Counted from the first letter of the stretch, positions 2,159 to 29,707 are shown. The stretch is DNA of 64,000 nt from an uncultured Chloroflexia bacterium (GCA_963824735.1 CAWGQH010000009.1:12142-76141), one strand, 5' to 3'. The notes: a model not told the origin generated them from the sequence alone. Program-made: numbers and translations.

Positions 2159-2178
2159 TTTCCAATTCGGAGGTACCC

Positions 2179-3258
2179 GTGCGCGCTCGCTTCGTCGTCG
2201 GTCTCCTGGCCGTCCTCCTCGTCGTCGCCGGTTGCGGCGTCGAATCGGCCACCCCGATTGCCGCCGAGTCCGAATCGCCGGCGGCGAGCGAGCCTTCCGA
2301 GACCGAAGCCGCTACGAGCCCCAGCCCGCAGGGCAGCGTCGTCCCAGTCGATCTGTCCGTCGGGCTCGGCTACATCCCGAGCGTCCAGTTCGCGCCGTTC
2401 TACCTCGCCGCACAGAAGGGCTACTACGGCGAGGCCGGCCTGAACGTCGAGTTCCAGAACCGGATCGACCCGGACCTGATCACGCTCGTCGGTCAGGGCA
2501 CCATCGACGTCGGCATCGGTGACGGCACGAGCGTCATCCCCGCGGTCAGCCAGGGCATCCCGGTCCGCTACATGGCGACCATCTACGGGAAGTTCCCGTC
2601 GATCGTGTTCGCCAAGGCGTCATCCGGGATCGACTCGCCGGACGACCTCGCGGGCAAGAAGCTTGGGACGCCCGGGCGGTTCGGCTCCGGCTGGGTCGCG
2701 CTGCAGGCCATGCTGCAGTCGGTCGGGCTCACGCCCGAGGACCTCGAGATCGTCGAGTACCCCGACTTCGGGCAGGGCGCCGCGGTGGCCGCCGACCAGG
2801 TGGACGCCGCGACCGGCTTCGTCAACAACGAGCCGGTCCAGCTCGAGCTGAGCGGGACACCCGCGTCGGTCCTGCGTGTCGACGATGTCGTCCCGCTGCC
2901 GGGGCCGGGGCTGATCGCCGGCGTCGACACGCTCGAGGAGAACCAGGACGCGATCCAGGCGTTCATCGCGGCGACGCTCCGCGCGATGGAGGAGATCGCC
3001 GACGATCCGGAGGCCGGGCTCGAGGCGGCAATCACCGAGGTTCCGGAGCTCGGCAACGATCGGGAGACGCAGCGCGCGATCCTCGAGGCGACGATCGACA
3101 CGTGGCGCGGTCCGCTGCAGGCCGAGCGTGGCCTCGGCGCGGTCGATCGCGACGGATGGCAGGCGTCGATCGAGTTCCTCGACGACCTCGGCCTCGTGCC
3201 GAACCCGATCACGATCGAGGACGTGCTGCGCGACGACCTGCTGCCGGCGGGCGACTGA
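2179..3258 (+). CDS. ABC substrate-binding lipoprotein, NMT1/THI5-like
   Basis: GGAGG at 2169-2173, GTG at 2179, lipobox VAGC, motif LGYIPSVQFAPFYLAAQKGYY. Confidence 0.88.
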   Translation: MRARFVVGLLAVLLVVAGCGVESATPIAAESESPAASEPSETEAATSPSPQGSVVPVDLSVGLGYIPSVQFAPFYLAAQKGYYGEAGLNVEFQNRIDPDLITLVGQGTIDVGIGDGTSVIPAVSQGIPVRYMATIYGKFPSIVFAKASSGIDSPDDLAGKKLGTPGRFGSGWVALQAMLQSVGLTPEDLEIVEYPDFGQGAAVAADQVDAATGFVNNEPVQLELSGTPASVLRVDDVVPLPGPGLIAGVDTLEENQDAIQAFIAATLRAMEEIADDPEAGLEAAITEVPELGNDRETQRAILEATIDTWRGPLQAERGLGAVDRDGWQASIEFLDDLGLVPNPITIEDVLRDDLLPAGD

Positions 3259-3642: not shown

Positions 3643-4987
3643 GTGGCGCCCACACCGGTCCTCCCCGAGCGACCACCCTTCTCCCTCCGTGCCAGGTTGC
3701 TGACACCGCTTGCCGACGGCGGAAGCCGCCACGAGTGCGGACGGGCTCCTGGTCGTCGACGCGGACGGGCGGATCGCCTTCGCCGGCGCCGCGGCGGATC
3801 GTCCGGCGGAAGCCGCGTCGGCGCTTGCGCTTCCCGGCTGGGTGCTGCTCCCCGGGCTGGTCGACCTCCACGCCCACCTGCCACAGCTGCCGAACGCCGG
3901 GCTGGGAGCCGGCCTGGACCTGCTGACCTGGCTGGAGCGCTACATCTTTCCGCTGGAACGCGGGTTCGACGAGGCCCGGGCCGACGTCGTGGCACCGGCC
4001 GCCTGGCGGGCCTTCGCGGCCGCCGGCACCACTACGGCACTCGTCTACGGCGCGGTGTACGAGGCGAGCCTCGACGCCACGTTCCGGGCTGCCGAGGCGC
4101 ACGGCATCCGCGCGGTCGTCGGCAAGGTGATGATGGACCGGGTCACGTACGACCAGACCATCGACCCGGCGACGATCCTCGATCGGTCCCTGCGCGAAGC
4201 CGCCGACCTCTGTTCGCGCTGGCACATGCGCGACGACGGCAGGTTGCGGTACGCGTTCACGCCACGGTTCGCGGTCTCGTGCAGCGCCGACATGCTCCGC
4301 GAATCGGCGGCGCTCGCCCGCGCCACCGGTGCGTACTGGCAGACCCATGTGTCCGAGGACCGCGGCGAGATCGCCGAGGTGGCGCGGCTCTTTCCGGAGG
4401 CGATCGACTACGTCGACGTGTACGACCGGGCCGGCGGGCTCGGGGAGCGGACCGTGCTGGCCCACGCCGTGCACCTGTCCGAGCGGGAGATCGCACGGCT
4501 CGTCGAGACCGGTACGCGGGTCGCGCACTGCCCGGCCTCGAACCTGTTCCTCGCCTCCGGCGTGATGCCGCTGGGGCGCTATCTCGAGGCCGGGATGCGG
4601 GTCGGCCTCGGGTCCGACGTGGCCGGCGGGCCCGACCTGTCGATCTTCGGCGCGATGCGAGTCGCGTTCTACTCGTGGAACGCGCTGCGAGTTGAACGAG
4701 ACGGGGTGCCGCCCGTCCCCGGCCCGCTCGACTGGCTCCGCTTGGGCTCGCTCGAAGGCGCCCGGGTCCTGGGGATCGACGACGTCACCGGCTCGCTCGA
4801 AACGGGCAAGGAGGCCGACGTCATCGCGGTCGACCCGTCGCTCGTCGGCCCGCTCGACGGCCACGCCGACGACGACCCGACCGACCTGATGAGCAGGCTC
4901 ATGTTCCGCGCCCACCCGGACATGGTCCGCGCGGCCTGGGTCCGCGGCCGCGCCCTCGACGGCCCAGGCACGATCAGAGCACGATGA
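3643..4987 (+). CDS. guaD: Guanine deaminase (one frameshift near 3736)
   Basis: PGLVDLHAHLPQ, TPRFAVSCS, QTHVSE, HCPASN and GLGSDVAGG motifs. The N-terminus (SLRARLLTPL) is in another frame and joins after an extra T at 3736. Extended -10 TGcTAGCAT lies upstream of GTG 3643. Confidence 0.88.
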
Positions 4988-5627
4988 TCGCGCTTCCGCC
5001 CGGATCGCGACCCTCGCTCAGCGCGCGGAGACAGTCACGCTGGGAGACCGGGAACGCTGTGCCGAGGTCCGGCGCGCCAAGCCTCAGGGCGAGCCGGTTG
5101 GCCCGCGTATCCGCGACGAGCAAGATGACGTGATCCAACTCGCCGTCGCGCTGCTTCAGGTTCGTGCGCCGGGCGGCGGCCTGGAGGTCCCGCAACCGCG
5201 TCTCGGCCTCGACCCCGATTACGAAGCCCAGTCCGGCGATCGTTGCGTCCCAGGCTCGAAGGTCCCCAGGAATCGGCATCGGCACCTCCGTTCGCCAGCG
5301 CAGTTGTGGGGAGATTCTCGCCCGGAACCGATGAAGCAGCGCAACATGCGCTGCGTCGCGCACCGGATCCCCGGACGGGTAGAGGCGCAAAGACGCCTCG
5401 AGTCCCACAGTGGCGGAGATGCGGGCAATAGAGCCAAGGCTCACCTCCGGCGCAATTCCCCGTTCAACCCGCCATACCTTCGTGCGGGACATGCCGGCCG
5501 CCGATCCGACCTTACGCAGACTGAGACCAGCACTGATCCGTGCCAGGCGGATGTCACGGCCCGCAGCGCCGAGTTGCTCGGCGGTTCGCCGCGTGGCGCG
5601 CTCAACAGGTCGTTCACGAGTCCCCAT
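4974..5627 (-). CDS. XRE-family HTH protein with C-terminal restriction-endonuclease-like domain
   Basis: N-terminal XRE HTH (RISAGLSLRKVG..SRTKVWRVERG). C-terminal WD..VEAET resembles a PD-(D/E)XK core. Less GC3-biased than its neighbours. Confidence 0.7.
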   Translation of the reverse strand: MGTRERPVERATRRTAEQLGAAGRDIRLARISAGLSLRKVGSAAGMSRTKVWRVERGIAPEVSLGSIARISATVGLEASLRLYPSGDPVRDAAHVALLHRFRARISPQLRWRTEVPMPIPGDLRAWDATIAGLGFVIGVEAETRLRDLQAAARRTNLKQRDGELDHVILLVADTRANRLALRLGAPDLGTAFPVSQRDCLRALSEGRDPGGSAIIVL

Positions 5628-5880
5628 GCCGTCAAGAGTCTCAAACGACGCTTACCTGGCGGATATTCGGCGCGCGTCACGTGTGACATGACAACCAGCC
5701 AAGCAGGCGTCGGCTGCAGGCTGGCGACCCTTGCTCGTCACATCAAGCGAGCCAAATGGAGGGGTGAGGAACTGATCATTCGCCGGAAGTCACGCATGCT
5801 GTGCCGATTCGCGACCGCCCGCACGCCCGACCGTTCGTTGTCACGCCGGATGAACCTCGGGCGGCTGGACGTGTTGACAC

Positions 5881-7479
5881 GTGGCTGACGTCGCCGACCT
5901 TGTCATCGTCGGGGGGACGGTCGTGGATGGGACCGGGGCACCGGGGCGGCCGGGGACGGTCGTCATTGACGGGGAGCGGCTCAGGCTCACCCCGGCCGCT
6001 GCCGAACCCCCGCGCGCCGCCCGCACGATCGACGCCACGGGCCGGGTCGTCGCCCCGGGGTTCATCGACCTGCACAGCCACGGCGGCCTCGTCATCCTCG
6101 ACGACCCGCGGCACGAGCCGAAGGTCCGCCAGGGGATCACGACCGAGGTGGTCGGCGTGGACGGGATCAGCTTTGCGCCGTTCCCGCGGCGCGAGGACCT
6201 CGACGCGATGATCGAGATGGACGCCGGCCTCGACGGCGATCCGCCGGTCGCCCATGACTGGGACTCCGTCGCGAGCCTGCTGACCCGTTACGACGGCCGG
6301 GCGAGCCTCAACGTCGCGACGCTGATCGGCAACTCGGCGCTGCGCATCGCGGCCCTCGGCTGGGACGACGTCCCCGCGGACCCGGCCGCGCTGGACCGCA
6401 TGCGGGGACTCCTCCGCGAGGGGCTGCAGGAGGGCGCGGTCGGGCTCAGCTCCGGGCTCGACTACCCGCCCGGCAGCTACGCGACCACCGAGGAGCTCGC
6501 CGCGCTGACCGAAGAGGCGGGAAGGAGCGGCGCGTTCTATCACACCCACGTCCGGTACGCGCTCGGCGACCGTTACCTGGACCCGTTCCGCGAGGCGATC
6601 GAGATCGGGCGGCGAGCCGGGGCGCCGGCCCACATCACGCACTTCTACCACCGCGAGACGCATCCCGGCGGGTACGAGCCCCTGCTCGGCCTCGTCGACG
6701 ATGCGCGCGCCGAAGGCCTCGACGTCACGTACGACTCCTACCCGTACGAGTGGGCGAGCACGCGGCTCCTCATCCAGCTCCCGGGCTGGATCCAGGCCGG
6801 CGGCCCCGGCCCGCTCAAGCAGCGCCTCGCCGAGCGGACCGCCCGCGACCGCCTCCGCGAGGAGCTTGCCGCCCGGGGCGCTGCCTACACGAGCCCGGCA
6901 GGCTGGGCCGACGTGCGCCTCGGCGCGTTCCGGAGCCCGCAGAACCTCCACTGGGAGTCGCACACGCTCGCGGACGTGATGCACGAGACGGGCCACGACG
7001 CGGTCGATGTGATCTGCGACCTGCTCCTCGAAGAGAACCTCGCGGTCAACCAGGTCACGAGCGGTCCGTGGACCGAGACCCTTCGACCGTTCGTCGTGCA
7101 CCCGGTGGGGATGGTCGGCACCGACTCCACGTTCGTCGGCGCGAAACCGAGCCCGCGCACGTACGGCTCCTTCCCGCGCATCCTCGGCCAGTTCGTCCGC
7201 GACGAAGCGCTGTTGAGCATCGAGGAGGCAGTGCGCAAGATGACCTCGGCGCCGGCGGCGCGGCTCGGCCTCAACCAGCGCGGAACCCTGCGCGACGGCG
7301 CGCTGGCCGACGTCGTGGTCTTCGACCCGGCGACGGTCCGATCGAACGCGACCTACGACGAGCCGCGCAGCTACCCGACCGGGATCGAAACCGTGATCGT
7401 CAACGGCACGCTCGTCGTGGACGGCGATGCGCACACCGGCGCGACGCCGGGACGCGGGATCCGCCTGGGGAAGGACTAA
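5881..7479 (+). CDS. N-acyl-D-amino-acid deacylase / D-aminoacylase-family amidohydrolase
   Basis: PGFIDLHSH, SSGLDYPPG, DSYPY, GTDS and PRTYGSFPR motifs. Confidence 0.88.
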   Translation: MADVADLVIVGGTVVDGTGAPGRPGTVVIDGERLRLTPAAAEPPRAARTIDATGRVVAPGFIDLHSHGGLVILDDPRHEPKVRQGITTEVVGVDGISFAPFPRREDLDAMIEMDAGLDGDPPVAHDWDSVASLLTRYDGRASLNVATLIGNSALRIAALGWDDVPADPAALDRMRGLLREGLQEGAVGLSSGLDYPPGSYATTEELAALTEEAGRSGAFYHTHVRYALGDRYLDPFREAIEIGRRAGAPAHITHFYHRETHPGGYEPLLGLVDDARAEGLDVTYDSYPYEWASTRLLIQLPGWIQAGGPGPLKQRLAERTARDRLREELAARGAAYTSPAGWADVRLGAFRSPQNLHWESHTLADVMHETGHDAVDVICDLLLEENLAVNQVTSGPWTETLRPFVVHPVGMVGTDSTFVGAKPSPRTYGSFPRILGQFVRDEALLSIEEAVRKMTSAPAARLGLNQRGTLRDGALADVVVFDPATVRSNATYDEPRSYPTGIETVIVNGTLVVDGDAHTGATPGRGIRLGKD

Positions 7480-8270
7480 GCCTCGCCCGACTCCCCGGCG
7501 TTCGCGTGCTCGGCCTCGGCAGCCTCGTCCGGGACAAGGTCGGAGCTCCGCCGCGCGTTGCGATGGACCTCGGCGTACATCCGCTCGGTGGCAATCCGGC
7601 CGGCGTCGTGCAGGCTGTCGTCGCCCGACGCGCTGGCCCAGCCTATCGCGAGCTTGAGTGCCACCGCCCCCAATTCGAGCCACAGGTCGCAGGTCCGCCG
7701 GACGCGCTCGACATAGTTGATCGCCTGGATCTCATCGGTCTCCGGCAGCAGGACCGCGAAGCGGCCGTCGCTCACGCGAGCGACGAAATCGGCCTCGCGG
7801 GCGAGGCGCCGGACGGTGTCGGCCACGGCGGGCACGAGCCGGTCGCCGGCCGCATCGCCGAGCCGGGCAGTGAGCCGATCGAGCCCATCGAGCTCGATCA
7901 TCACGATCGTCGCGGGCCGCCGGTAGCGGCGGACGCGGGCGTCCTCGTCGGCCACGACGCGGGCCCAGCGGCTCGGGCTGAGCAGGCCGGTGAGCGCGTC
8001 GCTCGTCGGGCCATCGGGGTCATCGGCGGCGCCGTTGGACCCATTCACGGGACCGGGATTGCCGTTCGCGGGGCTGGCGAGGCTCATGGCCACGCGACTC
8101 GTCGCCATGTCGGAATCGAGCAAGATCGGGCCTCCTGCGCCCGCTGTCGCAGGCGTCATCGACCCGCTCCCCCGCCGCGGCATGCGTGGGATGACCACGG
8201 CCAGGGCGATCAGGAGCGCAGTCGCGAGCAGCGCAGCGATCAGCAGATACGTGACGGTCTGTTGATCCAT
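7476..8270 (-). CDS. Membrane-anchored degenerate GGDEF-domain protein
   Basis: N-terminal TM helix, DALTGLL motif, READ (RxxD) followed five residues later by SDGRF in place of GGDEF. TATAGT -10-like hexamer at 8321-8326 on the minus strand. Confidence 0.8.
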   Translation of the reverse strand: MDQQTVTYLLIAALLATALLIALAVVIPRMPRRGSGSMTPATAGAGGPILLDSDMATSRVAMSLASPANGNPGPVNGSNGAADDPDGPTSDALTGLLSPSRWARVVADEDARVRRYRRPATIVMIELDGLDRLTARLGDAAGDRLVPAVADTVRRLAREADFVARVSDGRFAVLLPETDEIQAINYVERVRRTCDLWLELGAVALKLAIGWASASGDDSLHDAGRIATERMYAEVHRNARRSSDLVPDEAAEAEHANAGESGEA

Positions 8271-8506
8271 GGTCCGAATGACTCCAGGATGAATGCCGAA
8301 CCAGGGACGGTTGCCGCAGGACTATACGGATCGCCCGCCCGATGCGGACCCCTTTCCGGCGGCGATGGGACTCCTTTCCGGTGACCCCCGGCACCGCGCG
8401 GCGGGGTCCGGTGGGGTCCCGACGGGAACGGTGCGCACGCGTGACTCCGGGCCATCGCGGCCATCCTCGGGTGGTACCCTCACGCGCCAAGGAGGCTGCC
8501 CGCCGC

Positions 8507-10944
<2,438 letters not shown>

Positions 10945-10948
<4 letters not shown>

Positions 10949-11442
10949 GCACGGTCCGCTTCCTGGTCAACGGCGAACCGACCGAGATCGACGTCCCGGG
11001 CATGCGCCGCCTCCTCGACGTCCTGCGCGAGGACCTCGGGCTGACCGGCACGAAGGAGGGCTGTGGAGAAGGGGAGTGCGGGGCGTGCACGGTCCTGCTC
11101 GACGGTGTCGTCGTCGATTCGTGTCTTGTGCCGATCTGCCAGGTCGACGGTTCGATCGTGCGGACCGTCGAAGGACTCGCCCGTCCGGCCTCGACGCCGG
11201 GTGGTACGCCGGAGCTGGACGAGCTCCAGACCTCGTTCCTCGAGCTGGGCGGCGCGCAGTGCGGGATCTGCACGCCCGGGATGCTGATGGCGGCCCGTGC
11301 GTACCTCGACGACGGCGGCGGGCCGGACGAGGCGGCGATCCGCGAGGCGATCGCCGGCAACCTCTGCCGCTGCACGGGCTACACGAAGATCATCGACTCG
11401 ATCGCCGCCGCCGCCCACGGGCCGGAAGGACCTGCGGCGTGA
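10945..11442 (+). CDS. xdhC: Xanthine dehydrogenase 2Fe-2S subunit
   Basis: GCGEGECGAC, QCGICTPG and NLCRCTGY motifs. ATGA overlap with the upstream gene. Only the last 165 aa of the 1049-aa track ORF are real. Confidence 0.93.
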
Positions 11443-11639
11443 AGGACGGCGAGTTCGACCGGCTTCGCATCCCGATGGCCGACCCGGAGGACGCTGACGA
11501 TCCCGAGTCCGACGAGTACGCCGAGCGGATCGGCGTCGGCGCCTCACCCGCGCAGCTTGCCGCTGGTTCGGCGATCCTCGCGGGCCTCGTCCTGGTCGGC
11601 CTCGCCGCGCTGCGTCGCAGGCGCAGCCCGGAGCGCTGA
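11439..11639 (+). CDS. Small hypothetical membrane protein inside the xdh operon
   Basis: GTGA overlap with the xdhC stop and ends 2 nt before xdhB. Acidic N-terminal half, C-terminal TM helix, RRRR tail. Confidence 0.7.
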   Translation: MKDGEFDRLRIPMADPEDADDPESDEYAERIGVGASPAQLAAGSAILAGLVLVGLAALRRRRSPER

Positions 11640-11641
11640 CG

Positions 11642-12499
11642 ATGCCCGTCGAACCGCCGATCGTCACCCCGCGCTCGCTCGACGACGCCTACGCGGCCCT
11701 CGCCGAGGCGCCCCATCGGCCGATCGCGGGCGGGACCGACGTCATGGTCCAGCTCACCGGGGAGCTGGGGCCGGTCCCCGAGCGGATGGTCGACCTGTGG
11801 CGGCTCGACGAGCTGCGCGGCATCGGACTCGACGGCGACCGCCTCGTGCTCGGCGCGCTCACGACCTTCAGCGAGATCCGCCACTCCCCGTTGTGCCGCG
11901 AGGTGGTGCCGGCCCTGGTCGAGGCGGCGGCCACGATCGGCGCGGCGCAGATCCAGAACCGCGCCACGATCGGCGGCAACGCGATGAATGCCTCACCGGC
12001 CGGCGATTCGCTGCCGGTCCTGCTCGCGACCGACGCCGAGTTCGTCGCCGGCTCGCGGCGCGGTGAGCGGACGATCCCCGCAGGCGCGTTCTGGGTGGCC
12101 TACCGCACGACGGCGCTCGAGCCCGACGAGCTGCTGCTGCGAATCCGCATCCCGTTGGTGCCGGGGCGTGAGCTGCGCTTCCGCAAGGTCGGCACGCGCC
12201 GCGCCCAGGCCATCAGCAAGGTCGTGCTCGCGCTCGCCCGGCGTGAGACGGAGCCTGGCGGCCGCTGGACCGAGGTTCGCCTGGCACTCGGGTCCGTGGC
12301 GGACCGGCCCATCCGGGCGGCCGCCACCGAGGCCGTCCTCGAAGGCGCCGAGCCCGACCAGGGGACGGCCGACCGCGCGGCCGACACGCTGGCCGGCGAG
12401 CTCCGGCCGATCGACGACGTCCGTTCGACGGCCGACTACCGTCGGACGGTCGCCGCGCGCGTGCTCCATCGGCTCGTGCGCGAGGCCGGCGGCTGGTGA
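11642..12499 (+). CDS. xdhB: Xanthine dehydrogenase FAD-binding subunit
   Basis: IAGGTD, QIQNRATIGGN, ASPAGD and DDVRSTADYR motifs. Confidence 0.93.
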   Translation: MPVEPPIVTPRSLDDAYAALAEAPHRPIAGGTDVMVQLTGELGPVPERMVDLWRLDELRGIGLDGDRLVLGALTTFSEIRHSPLCREVVPALVEAAATIGAAQIQNRATIGGNAMNASPAGDSLPVLLATDAEFVAGSRRGERTIPAGAFWVAYRTTALEPDELLLRIRIPLVPGRELRFRKVGTRRAQAISKVVLALARRETEPGGRWTEVRLALGSVADRPIRAAATEAVLEGAEPDQGTADRAADTLAGELRPIDDVRSTADYRRTVAARVLHRLVREAGGW

Positions 12500-13014
12500 T
12501 CGACCTCGAGGTCGGGCCCGCCGACGAATTCGAGGCCGCTGTCGCGCCGCTGTTCGAGGGTGCGCCGCAGTTCCTCGCGCGGCTCGCGGCGGCGCGGCCG
12601 TTCGCCACGCCGGACCAGTTGTTCGCCACCGCCCGATCGATCGCCCATGCCATGCCCGAGGCGGACCAGATCGAGCTGATCGATGCGCATCCGCGCCTTG
12701 GCGCTCCACCCGGATCGGTGTCGGCGCTGTCGTTCGTCGAGCAGGGTTACGACCGCGACGCCGCAGACGCGGCGGCCGAGACCGAGCGTGCCCGCGTCGC
12801 CGCGCAGCTGGAGCGCCTCAACGCCGCGTACGAGGCACGGTTCGGCTTCCGCTACTGCGTGTTCGTGGCCGGCCGGCCGCGCGCGGCGCTGATCCCCGGG
12901 TTCGAGGCCGCGCTGGAACGGCCGCGCGACGACGAACTGCACCGGGCACTCGATGCGGTGGTGGACATCGCGATCGACCGGCATGCGAAGCTGTCAGCGG
13001 AGGGAGCGCGATGA
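12496..13014 (+). CDS. uraD: OHCU decarboxylase
   Basis: HPRLG and LNAAYEARFGFRYCVFV motifs. Directly upstream of uricase. Confidence 0.9.
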   Translation: MIDLEVGPADEFEAAVAPLFEGAPQFLARLAAARPFATPDQLFATARSIAHAMPEADQIELIDAHPRLGAPPGSVSALSFVEQGYDRDAADAAAETERARVAAQLERLNAAYEARFGFRYCVFVAGRPRAALIPGFEAALERPRDDELHRALDAVVDIAIDRHAKLSAEGAR

Positions 13015-13856
13015 TCGAGCTCGGCGCGAACCGCTACGGCAAGGCGCAGATCCGCCTGGTGCGCGTGGTCCGCGGGCCGGGTGCCCACCGGCTGCGCGAC
13101 CTCACCGTGGCGATCGCGCTCGAAGGCGAGTTCACGGCCGCGCACGTCGACGGCGACAACGAGCTGGTCGTGGCGACCGACACGATGAAGAACACCGCCT
13201 ACGCGTTCGCCAAGGAACACCTCGACGGGTCGCTCGAAGCCTACGGCCGCGCGCTCGCCGACCACTTCCTCGCGTTCGAGCAGGTCGACCGGGCGAGCGT
13301 CTCGATCCGCGAGCACGGCTGGTCGCCGATCGCCACGCCGAACGGGCCGGCGCCCGATGCCTTCGTCCGCGCCGGCAGCGGAACGCGCGTCGCGACCGTG
13401 GTCGCCGCCCTCGGCGGGACGACGATCGAGGCCGGCGTCGAGGATCTCGTCGTCATGAAGACCGCGCGCTCGGCGTTCAGCGGTTTCCCGCGCGACCAGT
13501 ACACAACTCTGCGCGACACCGACGACCGGATCATGGCCACCAAGGTCACCGCGATCTGGCGCTACGGCTCGCCGGACCTCGCCTCGGACGCGCTCCACGC
13601 TGCGGTCCAGGCGACGCTGCTCGAGGTCTTCGCCGACCATGACAGCCCGTCGGTCCAGACCTCTATCTGGCTGATGGCGCGCGCGATCCTCGAACGGCAC
13701 GAGGAGGTGGCCGAGGTGCGCATGGCGCTGCCAAACCTGCACCACTGGCTCGCCGACCTGTCGCCGTTCGGGCTCGAGAACGACAACGAGATCTTCATCG
13801 CCACGACCGAGCCGCACGGGCTCATCGAGGCGACCGTCCGCCGCGGGGAGGGCTGA
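13011..13856 (+). CDS. pucL: Factor-independent urate oxidase (uricase)
   Basis: NRYGKA, ATDTMKNT, SPSVQ and LPNLHH motifs. ATGA overlap with uraD. Confidence 0.95.
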   Translation: MIELGANRYGKAQIRLVRVVRGPGAHRLRDLTVAIALEGEFTAAHVDGDNELVVATDTMKNTAYAFAKEHLDGSLEAYGRALADHFLAFEQVDRASVSIREHGWSPIATPNGPAPDAFVRAGSGTRVATVVAALGGTTIEAGVEDLVVMKTARSAFSGFPRDQYTTLRDTDDRIMATKVTAIWRYGSPDLASDALHAAVQATLLEVFADHDSPSVQTSIWLMARAILERHEEVAEVRMALPNLHHWLADLSPFGLENDNEIFIATTEPHGLIEATVRRGEG

Positions 13857-13859
13857 ACG

Positions 13860-15433
<1,574 letters not shown>

Positions 15434-15437
<4 letters not shown>

Positions 15438-16268
15438 GCAGGCCGGCCGAAGTCGCCGAGCGGGCGGACGAGGTCGAGGACAAGGCGAGCGATCTCAGCC
15501 GGCGCCTCGACCGCGACCAGGTGCGCGACGCCCGGCACGACCACGAAACGAGCGCCTGGAACGTTCGCCTCGAGATGGCGCCCGAACAGTTCGACGTACG
15601 AGAAATCGAGCGCGCCGTGGACGAACAGGATCGGCATCGTCAGGCGGTCGAGCCGTTCGGCGGCGGGCGGGTCGAGCGGCGCCTTGCGACCGAAGACGCG
15701 GCCCGCATCGTTCGTCGCGCGGACCATCGGTCGGAGGAACGCGCGCACCTCCCCGGGTAGCCGCTCCACCGGCTGGTCGACCCCCGCGCCCCACAGCGCA
15801 AGCTCGAAATCGGTCAGGGCCTCGATGTCACCAGCCTGGTCGATCTCCTCATAGCGCTGCTCGACTGCCTCGTCGCGCGGCGACATCTGGACGTCGAGGC
15901 CGCCGATGCCCGAGGCGAGCTGGACCAGCGCCGCGACGCGATCGGGGTGACTCACCGCGAGGTCGAGCGCGATCTGACCGCCCTGCGAGTTGCCCACGAG
16001 GGCCGCTCGCTCGATAGCCGAACGCGTCCAGCACGGCGAGCAGGTCGTCGACGCGGCTGAACTCGACGTCCTCGGTTGCCGAGCGGCCGAACCCCCGGGC
16101 GTCGTAGCGGATCGTGCGATAGCCGGCGTCCGTCAGCAGCGGAACGAACGGTTCCCACACGCGCGAATCGACGACGCCTGCGTGCAGCAGCACGATCGGC
16201 GGTCCGTCGCCCTCTCCGACGGCGTACAGGCGGCCACCGGGCACCGGGATCATCCGTTCGTCGCGCAT
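15434..16268 (-). CDS. Alpha/beta hydrolase (frameshift near 16016)
   Basis: [14 protein letters not shown], nucleophile elbow GNSQGG, HGALD and VAH. The two track ORFs join after removing one base. Confidence 0.85.
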
Positions 16269-16290
16269 CGTCCTCCCTGTCGCTCCCCGG

Positions 16291-17760
16291 TCAGGGTATG
16301 CGGTACAGCTTGTAGAAGCCGCCGACGCCGAGCTCCTCGCATGGTGTGCAGTCGGTGACGCTGCTCAGGACGACCGCGCCGGACGGTGCGCGCGTGTCGC
16401 GTGGCAGGTGGACGAACCGCTCCGGCCCAACGCCGCGCAAGGCGCCGTACCAGTAGCCGTGGACATAGGTCGGCACGATGCCGTCCTCGAGGTAGATCGG
16501 GTCGGCCCCGGTCGCCAGCGCGGCGTCCAGCAGCCGCGGGTACTCGGCGTCGAACCAGCCGCCCCGGTTGCGCGCGATCTCGTCGTAGCGGACCTGGAAC
16601 CAGATGCCCTGCACGACGACCGCGACGGCGAGGACGGCGAACGCCCCTTTTCGCGCGGCGCCGGAGGTGCCTGCGCCGCCCAGCAGCCACTCCTGCGCCG
16701 GGATCGTGAGGGCGATCGCGAAGATCGGGACGGCGATGAGGCGATGGACGTGGAACGGGTCGAGCGTCAGCGATGCCGGGATGAACGAGGCCACGAGCCC
16801 GAACAGCAGATAGCGCAGGAATGGTTCGGCGGTGAAGCGGCGAATCGCCACGACGATGCCGATGAGCGCGAAGCCGAGGACCCCGAGAAGCATGCTTCCA
16901 CCGATCCCCAGGACATGGTGCCGTTCGTTCGGGTCGCCGGTCACCAGCAGGCGGTAGGGATCGAGGTTGCCGAGCAACTGGGTGACGAACGTGCCGGCCA
17001 CCTCGGGCAGCGGCCGTCCGAGGTACCCGGCTTCGGTCAGGCGGACGAGCAGCGCGTCCGGCGCAAACAGGTTGAACAACAGGAACGGGATGAGGAGTAG
17101 GCCAAAGACGAGCCAGGTGCCCGCGACCGCGCGCCAGCGGTCGCGGCTCACGTAGACGAGCAGGCCAAGCGCGAGCAGCGGGCCGAGCAGCCGGCCAAGC
17201 GTGTACGTGTAGGTGAGCAGCGCGAGGATCGCGGCGAGCAGCACGATCGACCAGCGCGAGGAGCCCGGCGGGCGCGCCTGGAGCGCGAGCAGGAATCCCC
17301 CGACGAGGGCGGGCATCAGGGCGACCTCCATGGCCAGCCGCGTCGGTTCGAACGTCCATGGCAGGAGGAGCGTCATCGCAGCAGTCAGGACGGCGACGAG
17401 CGGACGCCCGGTCATGCGGAATGCCAGCGCGCCCATGAATACGATGGCCGCAACCCCGGCGGAGGCCGAAACGACGCGTGCGGCGAGGATGCTCGGGCCG
17501 GTGACGGCGAAGACCGCGGCAAGCAGGTAGATGTACGGGGCGGTCTTCCAGTCGCCGAACGACTCGAAGAAGATCGGCCACGGCCGGCCGTGCTCGTCGG
17601 CGCCCGTGGTGACAAGCGACCAGGCATTCCACGAGAACGACGACTCGTCGAGGTAGTAGCCGCTCGGGCGGTCGGTAAGGCCGGTCAACTGGACGACCAG
17701 CACCACGAGCGCGAACGCAACGAGGGCGAGCGGCAGCCCGCGTCCCCTCAGGCGGTCCAT
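16291..17760 (-). CDS. GT-C glycosyltransferase (family 39/ArnT-like) membrane protein
   Basis: N-terminal TM helix, then the DE motif loop (YYLDESSFSWNAWSL..DEHG) and many TM helices. Confidence 0.8.
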   Translation of the reverse strand: MDRLRGRGLPLALVAFALVVLVVQLTGLTDRPSGYYLDESSFSWNAWSLVTTGADEHGRPWPIFFESFGDWKTAPYIYLLAAVFAVTGPSILAARVVSASAGVAAIVFMGALAFRMTGRPLVAVLTAAMTLLLPWTFEPTRLAMEVALMPALVGGFLLALQARPPGSSRWSIVLLAAILALLTYTYTLGRLLGPLLALGLLVYVSRDRWRAVAGTWLVFGLLLIPFLLFNLFAPDALLVRLTEAGYLGRPLPEVAGTFVTQLLGNLDPYRLLVTGDPNERHHVLGIGGSMLLGVLGFALIGIVVAIRRFTAEPFLRYLLFGLVASFIPASLTLDPFHVHRLIAVPIFAIALTIPAQEWLLGGAGTSGAARKGAFAVLAVAVVVQGIWFQVRYDEIARNRGGWFDAEYPRLLDAALATGADPIYLEDGIVPTYVHGYWYGALRGVGPERFVHLPRDTRAPSGAVVLSSVTDCTPCEELGVGGFYKLYRIP

Positions 17761-17763
17761 GCT

Positions 17764-19188
17764 TTAGCCGTCCCCGGCGTGACCACGCTCGACGAACCGT
17801 CCGAACCCCCGGCGGCCGACGAATGCGCCGTCGCGGATGACCGCCCGGCCTCGCACGAACACGCTGCGAACCGCGCCGACCGCATCGAGTCCTTCGTACG
17901 GGGTGTAGTCACTGGTGTGATGCAGGTCGGCGGCGCGGACCGTCCGTCGCGCCGCGGGGTCGAACAGAACGAGGTCTGCGTCCCGTCCCGGCTCGATGGC
18001 GCCCTTCCGCTCGAACCCGAAGAGCCGCGCGGGGGTCGTGGCCAGGAGATCGACCATGCGCTCGATCGTGAGCCGGCCAGGTGCGACGCCGCGGCTGTGG
18101 ACCACGGTCAGCAGTGTCTCGATCCCCGGCGCCCCGTTGCTGATGCCGTCGAAGGTGATCCCCGAGACGGCACCGGCCTTCTCCACCGAACGGCGGTCCG
18201 GGACGTGGTCGGTCGCCACCAGGTCGAGGTCGCCGCTCGCGAGGCCGTCCCACAGGACGTCGCAGTTGGCCCGCTCGCGAAGGGGCGGCGAGATGATCGC
18301 GCAGGCCACGTCGAGCTCGTCCGGCTGGTCGTAACGGGTCGCATCCAGCGCCAGGTAGTGGGGGCACGTCTCGGCGAACGCGCGCACCCCGGCCGCCTTC
18401 GCCTCGCGGACGTGGCGAAGCGCTGCGGCGGACGAGAGGTGCACGACGTAGACGGGCGCGCCATTGGCGCCGGCGAAGGCCATCGCGCGGTGGGTTGCGA
18501 CCGCCTCGGCCTCGGGTGATCGCGTGGCAGCGTGGTAGCGCGCTGCCGTGTTACCACGCTGAAGCGCCGCGTCGACGGCGGCGTCGATCAGGACCGGGTC
18601 CTCGCAGTGGACCTGGAGCATGCCGCCACGCTCGCCGAGCACCCGCATCGCCTCGAAGATGCGGTCCGGGTCGAGCCGGAAGTCGAACACCATGAACGCC
18701 TTGCACGTCGCGACGCCGGCATCGACGACGGCCGGCAGCTCGGCGATCGGGTCGTCCATCCGGCCCGAGATCGCCAGGCTCAGCCCGAAGTCGACGGCCG
18801 CGTCCGACTCGGTGGCGGTCCGCCACTCGCGCATCCCCGCCACGAGCGACCGTTCCGCGGCCGGTGACGACCCGGTTCCCGGGTTGTTGAACGCCAGGAA
18901 CGTCGTCGTGCCACCGAACGCTGCGGCCACGGAGTCCTGGAAGAAGCGGTCGGGCTCGGCGTCCGTGGCGACCCGCGTGTGGGTGTGCACGTCGACGGCG
19001 CCCGGCAGGACGAGGAGATCGGTCGCGTCGACGACCTCCCGGGCGGACGCGGTCAGCCCATCGAGATCGGGTTCGACTTGTTCGATCCGTCCGCCGGTCA
19101 CGAGCACGTCGGCACGGCGAGAACCGGCCGCGGCGACAACGGTTCCGCCGCGGACGAGCAGGTCAGCCCCGCCAGGTTCGATCGTCAC
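17764..19188 (-). CDS. hydA: Cyclic amidohydrolase, dihydropyrimidinase/hydantoinase type
   Basis: PGAVDVHTH, KAFM, VHCED, VVHLSS, ETCPHYL, SPPLR and TDH motifs. Confidence 0.85.
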   Translation of the reverse strand: MTIEPGGADLLVRGGTVVAAAGSRRADVLVTGGRIEQVEPDLDGLTASAREVVDATDLLVLPGAVDVHTHTRVATDAEPDRFFQDSVAAAFGGTTTFLAFNNPGTGSSPAAERSLVAGMREWRTATESDAAVDFGLSLAISGRMDDPIAELPAVVDAGVATCKAFMVFDFRLDPDRIFEAMRVLGERGGMLQVHCEDPVLIDAAVDAALQRGNTAARYHAATRSPEAEAVATHRAMAFAGANGAPVYVVHLSSAAALRHVREAKAAGVRAFAETCPHYLALDATRYDQPDELDVACAIISPPLRERANCDVLWDGLASGDLDLVATDHVPDRRSVEKAGAVSGITFDGISNGAPGIETLLTVVHSRGVAPGRLTIERMVDLLATTPARLFGFERKGAIEPGRDADLVLFDPAARRTVRAADLHHTSDYTPYEGLDAVGAVRSVFVRGRAVIRDGAFVGRRGFGRFVERGHAGDG

Positions 19189-19230
19189 CCCGCGAGAATA
19201 GCGATCCCGGGCATCACCCCGGGCAGGATG

Positions 19231-20571
19231 TCAGTCCGAATTCGACGACGCGGCGAGGATCGCCTCGAGCACCGGATCGCGCCCGGCGAAGTAGTCGTCC
19301 GCCGTCAGCTCGGCGCGGATTTCCGGTTCGATCGTGATCCGCATGTCGTCGGGCGTGCTGCGCTCCCAGTAGCGGGCCGCCATCCGCAGGATCTGGCCGC
19401 TGTCGGGAAGCGTGACGGGACGCGTGTCGCCGAACAGGTTCGGGCTCCCGCCCATGTCCTCGCCGGCGAACGTGACCGAGGTGGCCCCCTCGAGATCGGT
19501 CGCGAAGTTCGCTGCGGCCGAGAACGTCACGCGGCCGATGATCGCGTACAGCTTCCCGGGCCGGTCGATCGCCGGGTCGCGGAGCGCCAGCTCGAGCGGA
19601 GCCAGCGTCGTGTTGTCGCCGCCGCTGTTGTGGCGCAGGTCGATCACCACGCGCTCGACGTCGTCGGCCTGTGCGCGCTCGCGAATCTCGGCAATGACGT
19701 CGGTTGCGTCGCCGCGCACGGCGTTGAACTGCGCGAACAGCGTCCCGGAATCCTCGAGGAACGTCCACCACAGCGTCTCGTCCTGGTCGCGCAGCCAGGG
19801 CGCGTCGGTTGGGGCGAGCCGGTGGGGCAGCCCGGAATCCCACGCGTCCTCGATGGCCGGAGTGACCGGCTCGATCGTCACGTCGCGCCGGACGCCGTCC
19901 CGCCCGACCACCGTGAACGCCGTCGGGCCTGCTTCGTCGATCACGCCGAGCCCCGCCAGCAGCTCGCTGACCCGCAGGAAGAGCGTGCTGAACGCCAGCA
20001 GGTTCGACGGATTGTCGCGGGGCGCAAGCGGCTCGACGAGCCCGAGCACCTCATCGATCGGTCGCCCGCCGATCGCCTCCACGCGAGCGCCCACGAGGTC
20101 CTCGTACGGCGCCCGAGCCGCGGTGATGACCAGGCCCTCGGGGAAGCGCCACCAGCGGACCGGGTAGAGGTGCGTTCCGTCGTCGGGCGTGAACGGCCAG
20201 ATGCCGCTGTGGCCGTCGCGCCCGTTCCAGGTCGGCATCGCGGCGAGACGGATCAGCTCGACGAGGCGCTGGTCGTCGGACAGGGTATCGGCTCGAGCGG
20301 CGACCTCGTCGGCGGCCGCGATCCACTCGGATCGATCCATGCCGAACCAGCCGTCGGGGTGGATGGTGTCCCGGGCCTCCAACATCGCCTCGACGTCGGC
20401 CCGGAATCCGCCGGCGGCCATCGCGCTCGGCGTCGCCGTCGCACGTTGCGGCGTCGCGGCGGCGGACGGGGCGGACGGTGCTGACGAACCGCACGCAACC
20501 CCAAGGAGCCCGATCACCACGAAGACGATACTGCCAGATGGTACTTTCCTGCGGGCGGCGTGCACCGGCAT
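19231..20571 (-). CDS. Lipoprotein with S41 peptidase-like domain
   Basis: Lipobox GVACG, IDLRHNSGGD and VTFSAA (S41-type nucleophile region). Start approximate. Confidence 0.7.
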   Translation of the reverse strand: MPVHAARRKVPSGSIVFVVIGLLGVACGSSAPSAPSAAATPQRATATPSAMAAGGFRADVEAMLEARDTIHPDGWFGMDRSEWIAAADEVAARADTLSDDQRLVELIRLAAMPTWNGRDGHSGIWPFTPDDGTHLYPVRWWRFPEGLVITAARAPYEDLVGARVEAIGGRPIDEVLGLVEPLAPRDNPSNLLAFSTLFLRVSELLAGLGVIDEAGPTAFTVVGRDGVRRDVTIEPVTPAIEDAWDSGLPHRLAPTDAPWLRDQDETLWWTFLEDSGTLFAQFNAVRGDATDVIAEIRERAQADDVERVVIDLRHNSGGDNTTLAPLELALRDPAIDRPGKLYAIIGRVTFSAAANFATDLEGATSVTFAGEDMGGSPNLFGDTRPVTLPDSGQILRMAARYWERSTPDDMRITIEPEIRAELTADDYFAGRDPVLEAILAASSNSD

Positions 20572-20588
20572 CTCCTACGTGGCTGGCG

Positions 20589-21062
20589 TCAGGCGGTCTG
20601 ATCGGCGGAATCGGCGGACAGGCGTTCCCGCGCGACAGTCGCTGCGCGCCCGATCCCGCGGAGGACGGCGCGAGTCTCCTCCTCGTCGGTCGCCAGGGCG
20701 CCCATGAACCGTGCGTCGGCCTCGCTGAATGCGGCGCTCGCGGCTGCCTGGGCATCCAGGCCCGCATCGGTCAGCACGATCCGGTAGGAGCGGCGGTCCG
20801 CGGGTGACAGGGCGCGCTCCGCATGGCCCCGCTCGAACATCGCGCGCACGAAATGCGACATCGACGTCGGCGGCATGCCCGTACGCCGGGCCAGCTCCGT
20901 CGGAGCATGCGGGCCCTCGTCGAACAGGACGCTGTAGACCGCGTACTCCTCGGGCGTCAGCGGCGAATCGATCATCGCCTCGCGAACCAGCTCACCGGCG
21001 GAACGCGACGCCGCGTACAGCTCGAAGAGCAGGGAAAGTCGAGATCCAGGCCGGCGTCGCAC
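20589..21062 (-). CDS. MarR-family transcriptional regulator
   Basis: LTPEEYAVYSVL, ELARRTGM and wing DRRSYRIVLTDAG motifs. GTG at 21062 lies 7 nt after TAGCAT. Confidence 0.88.
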   Translation of the reverse strand: MRRRPGSRLSLLFELYAASRSAGELVREAMIDSPLTPEEYAVYSVLFDEGPHAPTELARRTGMPPTSMSHFVRAMFERGHAERALSPADRRSYRIVLTDAGLDAQAAASAAFSEADARFMGALATDEEETRAVLRGIGRAATVARERLSADSADQTA

Positions 21063-21072
21063 GAGCGAGATG

Positions 21073-21086
21073 CTACCACATGGTAG
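21073..21086. promoter_or_regulatory. Palindromic candidate MarR operator overlapping the -10 box
   Basis: CTACCA-CA-TGGTAG inverted repeat, overlapping the minus-strand TAGCAT (21070-21075). Confidence 0.55.
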
Positions 21087-21094
21087 GACCGTGG

Positions 21095-21298
21095 CTAATG
21101 CGGTGCGGCGTGGTCGTCCTGCCCGGTCGGCCGCTCCGGGTCCTCCAGGGTGCTCGTCTCGGCGGGCGCGTCGGCCCGTCGTTCGCGTTCGCGCGCGCGC
21201 TGCTCGGCTCGCTGACGACGTTGCCACCAGCGGGCGAACACGATCGTGATCACGATGATGAAGATGGTGTCGAACAGCGGCCGAAGGTTCGGATCCAC
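21095..21298 (-). CDS. Small single-pass membrane protein
   Basis: One hydrophobic helix followed by an Arg-rich stretch. Starts 3 nt after the DUF3830 stop. Confidence 0.65.
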   Translation of the reverse strand: MDPNLRPLFDTIFIIVITIVFARWWQRRQRAEQRARERERRADAPAETSTLEDPERPTGQDDHAAPH

Positions 21299-21301
21299 CG
21301 C

Positions 21302-21724
21302 CTAGCCGACCTCCTCGATCCGGATCGGCTGGGCGCCTTCCCACAGCGTGCGGCGTCCCATCTCGCGGAGGCGGTCCTGCCAGCCGTCGTCGGGAACGAT
21401 CGACGCGAAATGGTTGGCGGCCAGCTGGCCCACCTTCGACGACGTCGTGCACGCCCCGTACGGGAAGAAGATCTCGCACTCGCTGATGCCGCCCGGGTAC
21501 ATCGCGAGCATCCCGGGGGCGGGGTGCGAGGTGTGGTTCTCGTAGTCGATGCCCGGCCGGAAGTCGCCGTACGGGATCCACACCGACTCGCCCGACCAGC
21601 GGCAGTGGATCACCTTCGACTCGATGGGCAGCATCCGTCGGATGGCCTCGATCGTCTGCGGCGCGGCCGCCTCCCAGCGGGCGCTAAAGTGCAGGTCGCC
21701 GACCTCGATTTGCAACGTACCCAT
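21302..21724 (-). CDS. DUF3830-family protein (cyclophilin-like fold)
   Basis: IHCRWSGE, ENHTSHPAPG and YPGGISECEI motifs recalled for DUF3830. Leaderless TATCCT-N6-ATG start. Confidence 0.82.
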   Translation of the reverse strand: MGTLQIEVGDLHFSARWEAAAPQTIEAIRRMLPIESKVIHCRWSGESVWIPYGDFRPGIDYENHTSHPAPGMLAMYPGGISECEIFFPYGACTTSSKVGQLAANHFASIVPDDGWQDRLREMGRRTLWEGAQPIRIEEVG

Positions 21725-21738
21725 GCGCGGAGGATAGC

Positions 21739-22089
21739 GTGGCCAACCCACAGGCTCCCGGCGCACCGACGATCTCGACCCACGTTCTCGACACCGAACG
21801 GGGTGCGCCTGCGCAAGGGGTCCACGTGACCCTGTATCGCCTCGATGTCGGCGTGGGGGCCCCGATCCGCATGACCCAGGCGTTGACCGACGGAGACGGG
21901 CGCATCCACGACCTGCTCGAGCGCCCCCTCGTTGCCGGGGACTATCGCCTGGAGTTCGACATCGCCCACGAGGATGGGTCGTTCTTCACACGCCTCGCGA
22001 TCGACCTGCGCATCACCGACACGGGCCGCAGCTACCACGTCCCGCTGCTGCTGGCGCCCTACGCCATGACGACCTACCGGGGCAGCTGA
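21739..22089 (+). CDS. uraH: 5-hydroxyisourate hydrolase (transthyretin-like)
   Basis: STHVLDT..G.PA, YHVPLLL and C-terminal YRGS. GGAGG at 21729-21733. Confidence 0.95.
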   Translation: MANPQAPGAPTISTHVLDTERGAPAQGVHVTLYRLDVGVGAPIRMTQALTDGDGRIHDLLERPLVAGDYRLEFDIAHEDGSFFTRLAIDLRITDTGRSYHVPLLLAPYAMTTYRGS

Positions 22090-24159: not shown

Positions 24160-24277
24160 GGTGGGGTGACCTCTGGACGGTGCCGCGACGGGAAGCGGCT
24201 GTAGCGCGCATCGTACGCGGCAATTCAATAACGCCGTGACAGCCTAGATGTCACGGGACGCGCGCACCGTTCGGGCC

Positions 24278-28361: not shown

Positions 28362-28505
28362 CGATCGCGACTGCGAGACACCCGTCACGTCCGGCGCGGG
28401 CCGGGCAGCGGCCCCGCTTGCCCGCGTGCGCTATCGTGACCGTCCCGGCTCCAGCGGCCCGGGTTGTCGCTGGTTGCGTCGGGTGCATCGACGAGGTTCA
28501 GTGCC

Positions 28506-29635: not shown

Positions 29636-29707
29636 GATCGCCATCGCTGCGACTTCGGCCCGGCCGACCCTTTGCCGCTCCGCGTGCTCTTCGGCACACT
29701 TGATCCC

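Follow-up and report, generated by a model that had tools for sequence, protein, structure and literature searches.

How could a bacterium carry (S)-allantoin on to glyoxylate when the enzymes that usually do so cannot be found? The question is raised by positions 3,643 to 22,089 of a 64,000-nucleotide (nt) stretch of DNA from an uncultured Chloroflexia bacterium (GCA_963824735.1, CAWGQH010000009.1:12142-76141; contig C9 of the assembly), the whole of which, as it was analysed, is called the window below. Genes for purine breakdown lie here together with a malate synthase and with three proteins whose roles are less obvious: a HydA-like cyclic amidohydrolase, an Amidohydro_3 enzyme of the D-aminoacylase family, and a DUF3830 protein. 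Purines and ureides form a major pool of organic nitrogen, and the Limnocylindria are abundant soil bacteria. We consider it somewhat better than an even chance, at a probability of about 55%, that the region is a conserved Limnocylindria island leading from purines through urate, (S)-allantoin and glyoxylate to malate. The gene content, conservation and synteny of the island, the absence of canonical genes, and the fold of DUF3830 are observed.

Genome, relatives, and searches

The assembly measures 3.35 Mb in 19 contigs, with an estimated completeness of 80%, and the G+C content of the window is about 70%. Genes were chosen by third-position GC content and then by their matches to Pfam and NCBIfam profiles. 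Relatives retrieved through HydA place the organism in the Chloroflexota, within Candidatus Limnocylindrales/Limnocylindria. The proteins of the window were mapped by tblastn onto 80 related loci, each consisting of HydA with 10 kb on either side; many of these are incomplete, and the 36 with full flanks are counted separately. Class-wide profile searches covered 60 genomes, each at least 90% complete, plus the genome studied here (61 in all), with 14 control genomes, and 20 further DUF3830-centred loci were taken from other families of the class. Among the families, f1 is that of the window itself, f4 has the same type of cluster, and f3 and f5 have a type that contains a true allantoinase, AllB.

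A conserved island with an ordinary upper pathway

The genes on which the argument depends are the following.

3710-4987, plus strand: guanine-deaminase-like amidohydrolase, guaD-like (PF01979, 192 bits; TIGR02967, 332.9 bits against a cut-off of 375.4)
5881-7479, plus strand: D-aminoacylase-family Amidohydro_3 protein, candidate allantoate (N-carbamoyl) amidohydrolase (PF07969, 102 bits against a cut-off of 29.7)
8342-10948, plus strand: molybdopterin (Mo) subunit of the xanthine dehydrogenase (XDH) type (PF02738, PF20256, PF01315)
10948-11442, plus strand: XDH 2Fe-2S subunit (TIGR03198 pucE, 160 bits, and XdhC_XDHase, 151 bits, both under their cut-offs)
11642-12499, plus strand: XDH FAD-binding subunit (PF00941, 151 bits; PF03450, 74 bits)
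12496-13014, plus strand: OHCU decarboxylase, uraD (PF09349, 114 bits)
13011-13856, plus strand: cofactor-less uricase (PF01014, 172 bits over two repeats)
13860-15437, plus strand: malate synthase A, putative glyoxylate sink (TIGR01344, 720.1 bits against a cut-off of 594.5)
17764-19188, minus strand: HydA-like cyclic amidohydrolase of the D-hydantoinase clade (TIGR02033, 403 bits against a cut-off of 393.25)
21302-21724, minus strand: DUF3830 cyclophilin-like protein, candidate enzyme of the ureidoglycine/ureidoglycolate step (PF12903, 92.3 bits against a cut-off of 26)
21739-22089, plus strand: 5-hydroxyisourate (HIU) hydrolase, uraH (PF00576, 88 bits; GTG start)

Across the 80 related loci, uraH diverges from DUF3830, which is followed by HydA; then come malate synthase, uricase, uraD and the FAD, FeS and Mo subunits of XDH, and after these Amidohydro_3 and, at the far end of the island, the guaD-like gene. 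DUF3830 is found in 73 of the 80 loci, uraH in 72, malate synthase in 60 and uricase in 59; where the flanks are complete, the counts are 35, 36, 33 and 36 out of 36, respectively. DUF3830 and HydA are co-oriented in all 73 pairs, at most 150 nt apart in 45 of them and frequently overlapping, and all 71 pairs of DUF3830 and uraH diverge, the gap between them having a median of 47 nt. The initial annotation, made from the sequence of the window, had listed guaD, xdhABC, uricase, uraH, uraD and malate synthase, and all are real genes, placed where it had put them. It had also raised the question of whether the HydA-like, D-aminoacylase-family and DUF3830 proteins co-occur with uricase clusters, and the comparison shows all three to be conserved parts of the island.

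The upper pathway is made up of familiar enzymes, several of which match their families at scores below the curated thresholds. For the guaD-like protein, TIGR02967 is the top-scoring family and the match is full length, with a score under the cut-off. The next enzyme has the three-subunit Mo/FeS/FAD architecture of XDH, with every pucCDE/xdhABC equivalog score below its cut-off (the best NCBIfam match of the Mo subunit is pucD, at 500 bits against 784), so its identity as XDH rests on context. The uraD frame overlaps both the stop codon of the FAD subunit and the start of uricase. Upstream of the uricase ATG at 13011 there is a GGAGGGAG motif, and the ATG itself shares bases with the stop codon of uraD (ATGA). 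Malate synthase A then begins 3 nt past the uricase stop (13856 to 13860), as the initial annotation had stated. Since the isocitrate-lyase signature K-[KR]-C-G-H-[LMQR] is not found in a six-frame translation of the genome, a role of this malate synthase in a glyoxylate shunt is unlikely.

Several features of the surrounding sequence concern these same genes. The start codons of DUF3830 and uraH, which are divergent, lie 14 nt apart (21724-21739), and the GGAGGA motif upstream of the uraH GTG at 21739 falls between them. With so little space, either each promoter is located within the opposite gene or the leader of that gene, or DUF3830 is translated leaderless. In one sister-family cluster (L097:8049-9257; f3, genus g11), the cofactor-less uricase gives way to a membrane urate oxidase of the PuuD type (PF06181, 386 bits); some sister-family clusters have this type, so the urate-oxidizing step, too, is interchangeable within the class. 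Just upstream of guaD, an ABC transporter (606-3258, plus strand) consists of an ATPase and a long frame with a substrate-binding domain of the NMT1/THI5 type; it is not kept with the island in relatives.

Absence of the canonical steps from allantoin to glyoxylate

The canonical ureide pathways proceed by AllB-AllC-AllE-AllA/AllD in E. coli, by PuuE-Alc-AllA in Pseudomonas and by PucH-PucF in B. subtilis. The island resembles them in its XDH, uricase, HIU hydrolase and OHCU decarboxylase, in glyoxylate as the expected end product, and in having a cyclic amidohydrolase of the AllB superfamily clustered with the urate genes. It differs in that malate synthase is joined to the uricase operon, and in that an enzyme of the D-hydantoinase clade, one of the D-aminoacylase type, and DUF3830 are conserved instead of AllB, PuuE, AllC, AllE and AllA; allantoicase is likewise not found, with a search whose control is silent.

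Pfam and NCBIfam searches bear out the earlier statement that the window has no canonical allantoinase, allantoicase/AllC or ureidoglycolate lyase, and no canonical gene of the lower pathway was found elsewhere in the 80%-complete genome, again with the allantoicase control silent. No AllB reaches the cut-off in the genome, where the best AllB-like match is HydA itself (274 against 358 bits). PuuE, AllC and PF04115 (ureidoglycolate lyase/AllA) have no match in profile searches of it, and no M20 homologue (the AllC type; TIGR03176/NF006771) is present at E <= 1e-5. Local tblastn of the genome was equally negative, both with a sister-family AllC and two other M20 enzymes and with Paracoccus AllE and a polysaccharide deacetylase (PuuE family) as queries. 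The rest of the window contains no ureide, urea or pathway-relevant transporter genes. A second, dihydroorotase-like cyclic amidohydrolase was noted at G000:C6:75050-76407, where the AllB profile matches in three consecutive pieces; since these lie in different frames, frameshifts, a pseudogene or assembly errors are suggested.

The same picture is obtained throughout the class. AllE (TIGR03214) exceeds its cut-off in none of the 61 genomes, the profile being detected in the controls E. coli and D. radiodurans, and PF04115 (AllA), which is detected in E. coli, occurs in only one of the 61. AllC-like M20 enzymes are missing from all 18 genomes of family f1 (17 plus the genome studied here) and from 18 of 20 in f4 (17 of the 19 with the cluster), the only f4 matches being in G030 (238 bits, on another contig) and G045 (fragments). 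Twenty-five genomes at least 90% complete carry the same type of cluster (6 from f1 and 19 from f4): none has AllE, a single one (G041) has AllA, and several are assembled in just 2-10 contigs. This class-wide absence in genomes at least 90% complete indicates that the gap is a property of the lineage and not an artefact of binning. Urease alpha is found in 5 of the 6 high-quality cluster-bearing f1 genomes and in none of f3, f4 and f5, a pattern which, if anything, mildly disfavours a general release of urea and favours steps that release ammonia.

HydA, a probable replacement for AllB

HydA gives 273.9 bits against the AllB model TIGR03178, under its cut-off of 357.85, and the enzymes that occupy the same slot in f1 and f4 behave alike, with 403-417 bits for TIGR02033 (cut-off 393) and 274-281 bits for the AllB model. 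The closest structures are the D-hydantoinases 4KQN, 1YNY and 1K1D; the nearest D-hydantoinase chains score 331 bits, versus 190 for the allantoinase 3HM7. HydA retains every ligand of the binuclear metal centre, the carbamylated Lys included; when it is aligned with 4KQN and 1K1D, their ligands fall on its motifs DVHTH, CKAF, QVHCE, VVHLS and TDH.

The position of the gene points to allantoin. The cluster of the sister families reads uricase or PuuD, uraD, then uraH divergent from DUF3830, AllB, in some cases an AllC-type M20 gene, deaminase and XDH. As in the island studied here, a cyclic amidohydrolase directly follows DUF3830, uraH and DUF3830 are divergent, and AllE and AllA are absent. 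Unlike it, however, the f3/f5 cluster contains a genuine AllB (487 and 478 bits against a cut-off of 358), which is only 31-35% identical to HydA, and an M20 allantoate amidohydrolase (in two genera, directly after AllB; NF006771, 403 bits against a cut-off of 399), and it has neither malate synthase nor an Amidohydro_3 orthologue. Because a true AllB occupies the same syntenic slot in the sister family, HydA is likely to be an allantoinase, and on the strength of sequence and synteny we regard it as probable that it replaces AllB in function as well as in place. (S)-Allantoin is spatially a D-5-substituted hydantoin by our own Cahn-Ingold-Prelog analysis (not the output of a tool), which is compatible with an enzyme of the D-hydantoinase type. 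For the hydantoinase-like HVO_B0302 of Haloferax volcanii, an allantoinase function has likewise been predicted from context (Pfeiffer and Dyall-Smith 2021, PMC8305020, Suppl. S9.g).

Amidohydro_3, a possible replacement for AllC

The closest structures to the Amidohydro_3 protein are N-acyl-D-Glu deacylase 3GIP (235 bits) and D-aminoacylase 1M7J (221 bits). The metal ligands of the latter, which we take to be His67, His69, Cys96, His220, His250 and Asp366, are incompletely retained: HxH, two His and the Asp are kept, and Cys96 is replaced by Asp, residues ~92-98 reading GVDGIS where D-aminoacylases have GNCGIS. This substitution, together with some 50 extra residues inserted between positions 297 and 403, sets the protein apart as a distinct subfamily.

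Its distribution is complementary to that of the M20 enzymes. Orthologues (64-78% identity) are found on the same contig in all 26 sampled genomes of f1 and f4 that have DUF3830; the 15 genomes sampled from f1, f2 and f4 in which DUF3830 is missing have none. The 20 genomes of f3 and f5, 18 of them with DUF3830, have no orthologue, only paralogues of 36-43% identity on other contigs. AllC-like M20 enzymes (E <= 1e-10) occur in 2 of the 26 and 0 of the 15, and in all 20 of f3 and f5. Such complementarity fits a non-orthologous replacement of AllC, and we tentatively suggest, at a little less than even odds, that this Amidohydro_3 is an allantoate decarbamoylase that has taken over from M20 AllC, as its phylogenetic pattern would have it.

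Taken together, HydA and Amidohydro_3 recall the hydantoinase process (D-hydantoinase, carbamoylase and hydantoin racemase), in which the ring of a 5-substituted hydantoin is opened and the N-carbamoyl product is then decarbamoylated. The island differs from it in having no Asp/Glu-type racemase and in a gene context that implies allantoin as the substrate. The known carbamoylases belong to the nitrilase superfamily or to M20, not to the amidohydrolases of the D-aminoacylase type.

DUF3830 and its structural relatives

A full-text literature search found no paper that mentions DUF3830, and none that links allantoinase with the term "cyclophilin-like". The AlphaFold2 model of the protein has a pLDDT (predicted local distance difference test) of 94.9 and a cyclophilin-like fold. 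Its top Foldseek match is the DUF3830 structure 3KOP (E = 4e-9, template-modelling (TM) score 0.81). Two bacterial Pictet-Spenglerases, KslB and McbB, come next (TM 0.71-0.79), and cyclophilins rank below them. The two Pictet-Spenglerases, which are about twice as long, are the best functionally characterized structural neighbours of this predicted structure. A profile built from the DUF3830 alignment retrieves only 3KOP from the PDB, and there is no detectable sequence-level link to the Pictet-Spenglerases. The polar residues E60, T63, Y74, E82, N102 and H103 are invariant from bacteria to archaea, and R40 and S42 nearly so.

In Pictet-Spenglerases, acid-base catalysis promotes the formation of carbinolamine and iminium from an amine plus a carbonyl partner, either an aldehyde or a 2-oxo acid. 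The carbinolamide and aminal adducts that glyoxylate forms with urea and ammonia include ureidoglycolate, ureidoglycine and allantoate, which leads us to propose that DUF3830 cleaves a C-N bond at the glyoxylate-derived carbon. The direction (bond breaking) and the substrates would both differ from those of McbB and KslB. That DUF3830 is the C-N cleaving enzyme of ureidoglycine/ureidoglycolate is a possibility suggested by its modelled fold, one that we hold with less than even confidence.

From Proteobacteria to haloarchaea, DUF3830 is found in the company of cyclic amidohydrolases or carbamoylases. On pHV3 of Haloferax volcanii the order is XDH, then M20-DUF3830-permease-amidohydrolase-uraD-pucL-uraH. 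This cluster (HVO_B0299-B0310) resembles the island in its XDH-type enzyme, uricase, uraH, uraD, hydantoinase-like amidohydrolase and DUF3830. It is archaeal, however, contains no malate synthase, and instead of the D-aminoacylase-type enzyme has an M20 "Zn-dependent hydrolase" (amaB4), which lies immediately upstream of DUF3830. H. volcanii is the one control genome of the 14 in which DUF3830 occurs; AllE and AllA are absent from it, and an AllC-like M20 is present. The step from allantoate to ureidoglycolate is listed as unassigned in this organism (Pfeiffer and Dyall-Smith 2021, PMC8305020, Suppl. S9.g), and DUF3830 does not figure in the published discussion of the cluster (Pfeiffer and Dyall-Smith 2021, PMC8305020). 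On pHLAC01 of Halorubrum lacusprofundi, the order is amidohydrolase-M20-DUF3830-D-2-hydroxyacid dehydrogenase, the last gene of this operon (L114:7139-8056) following with an overlap of 4 nt. The arrangement is a hint that in Halorubrum the DUF3830 step yields a 2-hydroxy or 2-oxo acid (ureidoglycolate or glyoxylate, for example). In Paracoccus pantotrophus, two DUF3830 copies adjoin allE and an M20 gene; in Azospirillum and Paraburkholderia, hydA is found with DUF3830; and on pRL10 of Rhizobium, DUF3830 lies with two amidohydrolases and an Asp/Glu racemase.

Directly downstream of DUF3830 in the window, a small open reading frame of 68 codons (21095-21301, minus strand) encodes one hydrophobic helix and an Arg/Glu-rich tail. 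Its third-position GC content is high, and it has no family match.

A proposed route and its alternatives

In the route that we propose, the upper steps would be catalysed by ordinary enzymes, namely the guanine-deaminase-like and XDH-type enzymes, uricase, HIU hydrolase and OHCU decarboxylase. HydA (17764-19188) would then open the hydantoin ring of allantoin, giving allantoate. Amidohydro_3 (5881-7479) would hydrolyse a carbamoyl group of allantoate, and perhaps of ureidoglycolate too, with CO2 and NH3 leaving. DUF3830 (21302-21724) would act at the glyoxylate-derived aminal or carbinolamide carbon, taking ammonia off ureidoglycine and/or urea off ureidoglycolate, and would in this way stand in for AllE and/or AllA. 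Finally, malate synthase A would take up the glyoxylate and convert it to malate. Every substrate of the lower pathway is here one that we infer. In its fullest form the proposal makes DUF3830 a new enzyme family related to the Pictet-Spenglerases (a ureidoglycine deaminase and/or ureidoglycolate/allantoate urea-lyase), and a partner of HydA and Amidohydro_3 in a third, wholly non-canonical route from allantoin to glyoxylate, used in soil Chloroflexota and, in variants with M20 enzymes, in haloarchaea; in this form it is speculative and on the unlikely side.

Several observations weigh against the route. The genome is merely 80% complete, and allantoicase (PF03561), which is found in 0 of the 61 genomes, is also silent in all 14 controls, so that the sensitivity of that search is unproven. 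Urease is confined to f1, and urea released elsewhere would be wasted nitrogen unless a urea carboxylase is present. The complementarity of Amidohydro_3 and M20 tracks family boundaries and so reflects about two evolutionary events, not 44 independent observations; moreover, Amidohydro_3 lies 10-26 kb from DUF3830, in a separate operon. HydA reads KAFMVFD at residue ~168, with Phe instead of the conserved Tyr that follows the carbamylated Lys. This is presumably Tyr155 in the numbering of 1K1D. Phe is found both here and in the related locus L014, and Tyr is present in the f4 orthologue and in the proteobacterial and haloarchaeal partners. Finally, DUF3830 and hydA also occur in clusters without purine genes (in Azospirillum, Paraburkholderia and Rhizobium), and these contexts, along with the canonical allE neighbour in Paracoccus, imply that DUF3830 is not a replacement for AllE everywhere.

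The alternative that survives best keeps HydA as the allantoinase and one amidohydrolase as the decarbamoylase, and makes DUF3830 an accessory protein (a racemase or isomerase, a binding or channelling partner, or an assembly factor), the decay of ureidoglycine and ureidoglycolate being largely spontaneous. Ureidoglycine is indeed chemically labile. The tightest linkage of DUF3830 is to a cyclic amidohydrolase or M20 gene of whatever subfamily, adjacent to it and often overlapping, and an accessory role would suit both its occurrence in clusters without purine genes and its place beside canonical allE, as well as a cyclophilin fold that is best known for isomerases. However, the Rhizobium cluster already has a racemase of the Asp/Glu type beside DUF3830, and OHCU decarboxylase yields a single enantiomer. 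The invariant residues (Glu, Glu and Asn-His) suggest a catalytic site, and the closest characterized folds are those of enzymes that make or break C-N bonds at a carbonyl carbon. We judge an accessory role to be rather unlikely.

It is also conceivable, if improbable, that purine breakdown ends at allantoin or allantoate, and that HydA, DUF3830 and Amidohydro_3 serve dihydropyrimidines, other 5-substituted hydantoins or N-acyl-D-amino acids, with malate synthase drawing its glyoxylate from, for example, glycolate. HydA does exceed the NCBI dihydropyrimidinase equivalog cut-off, which leaves room for a pyrimidine or hydantoin role and counts against the proposed route; the nearest relatives of Amidohydro_3 are N-acyl-D-amino-acid deacylases; and the proteobacterial contexts of DUF3830 and hydA are not those of purine catabolism. 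Against this stand the malate synthase that starts 3 nt after uricase, in an arrangement kept in 33 of 36 loci, the divergent promoter region that DUF3830/HydA share with uraH in 71 of 71 loci, and the true AllB that holds the identical slot in the sister family. In addition, no M20 enzyme of the beta-ureidopropionase type, as needed for pyrimidine breakdown, was found in the genome or in family f1, nor any isocitrate-lyase signature in the genome. It is highly improbable that canonical allB/puuE, alc/allC, allE and allA simply lie in the unassembled or unbinned ~20% of the genome, as the completeness estimate and the allantoicase search without a positive control might allow, given the 25 more complete cluster-bearing genomes, several of them in very few contigs, in which AllE was missing and only G041 (AllA), G030 and G045 (AllC-like) gave a match for AllA or AllC.

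Inserts and neighbouring genes

The remaining genes in and next to the island are the following.

4974-5627, minus strand: HTH_31 transcriptional regulator (PF13560, 33 bits)
7476-8270, minus strand: GGDEF-domain protein, a variable insert (PF00990, 59 bits; in 8 of the 80 related loci)
15434-16132, minus strand: alpha/beta hydrolase, a lineage-specific insert (PF12697, 38 bits; in 2 of 80)
16291-17760, minus strand: polytopic membrane protein of 489 amino acids, GT-C/PMT-like at best (in 1 of 80)
19231-20571, minus strand: S41-like secreted protein or lipoprotein, a lineage-specific insert (weak PF03572, 30 bits; in 3 of 80)
20589-21020, minus strand: MarR-type regulator, a lineage-specific insert (PF12802 and PF01047; in 3 of 80)
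24248-25570, plus strand: protein of 440 amino acids (no Pfam or NCBIfam match; a PD-(D/E)xK-like motif, GDFVITID...VVVEAKDR, at the C-terminus)

The initial annotation had suggested that unassigned neighbours may supply non-canonical ureide steps. This stands for the three candidates that it named, which are conserved, with HydA in the slot of AllB, and not for the membrane protein, the S41-like protein, the MarR regulator and the alpha/beta hydrolase, which are lineage-specific inserts. In this genome they split DUF3830 from HydA and HydA from malate synthase, interrupting an otherwise contiguous arrangement. These four were set aside as pathway candidates, each being present in only 1-3 of the 80 loci. 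The membrane protein has no significant Pfam match (PMT, E-value 0.56), and the N-terminus of the S41-like protein resembles a signal peptide. The gaps within the clusters of relatives were also considered as a source of extra ureide enzymes and held only variable transporters, GNAT proteins and regulators. The HTH_31 regulator adjoins guaD and Amidohydro_3 in two related loci as well (L014 and L018).

The 440-residue protein lies 11-40 nt after uraH or uricase in 58 of the 80 loci, and it always precedes or adjoins Ku and LigD. It was rejected as a hidden pathway enzyme, since it is missing near the f4 clusters of the same type and belongs to the Ku/LigD neighbourhood; probably it goes with the DNA-repair genes by lineage synteny, and not with purine catabolism. 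Ku (28464-29456, plus strand) and a multidomain LigD (29672-32443, plus strand; phosphoesterase, ligase and primase-polymerase) form a non-homologous end-joining pair, which in 37-48 of the 80 loci shows synteny with the purine island. Proteases of the subtilisin family (S8) at 22096-24228 (minus strand) and 26123-27793 (plus strand) flank the 440-residue protein, and in 16 of the 80 loci the former comes as an insert between uraH and the 440-residue protein.

Significance

The replacement of AllB by HydA in one slot, the complementarity of Amidohydro_3 and M20, the class-wide absence of AllE and AllA, the distribution of urease, and the link between DUF3830 and the Pictet-Spenglerase fold are new here. 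Automated annotation would label HydA a dihydropyrimidinase and leave the pathway open-ended; with that label, metabolic reconstructions would conclude, wrongly, that these organisms cannot use allantoin. Pfeiffer and Dyall-Smith (2021, PMC8305020) report that KEGG, too, labels the homologue in Haloferax a dihydropyrimidinase. The same gap is a recorded open issue for Haloferax volcanii, which is genetically tractable, and the comparative data now name three concrete candidate proteins. If the proposed route is true, DUF3830 would gain a function, and a new physiological substrate would be added for the cyclic amidohydrolases and another for the D-aminoacylase family.

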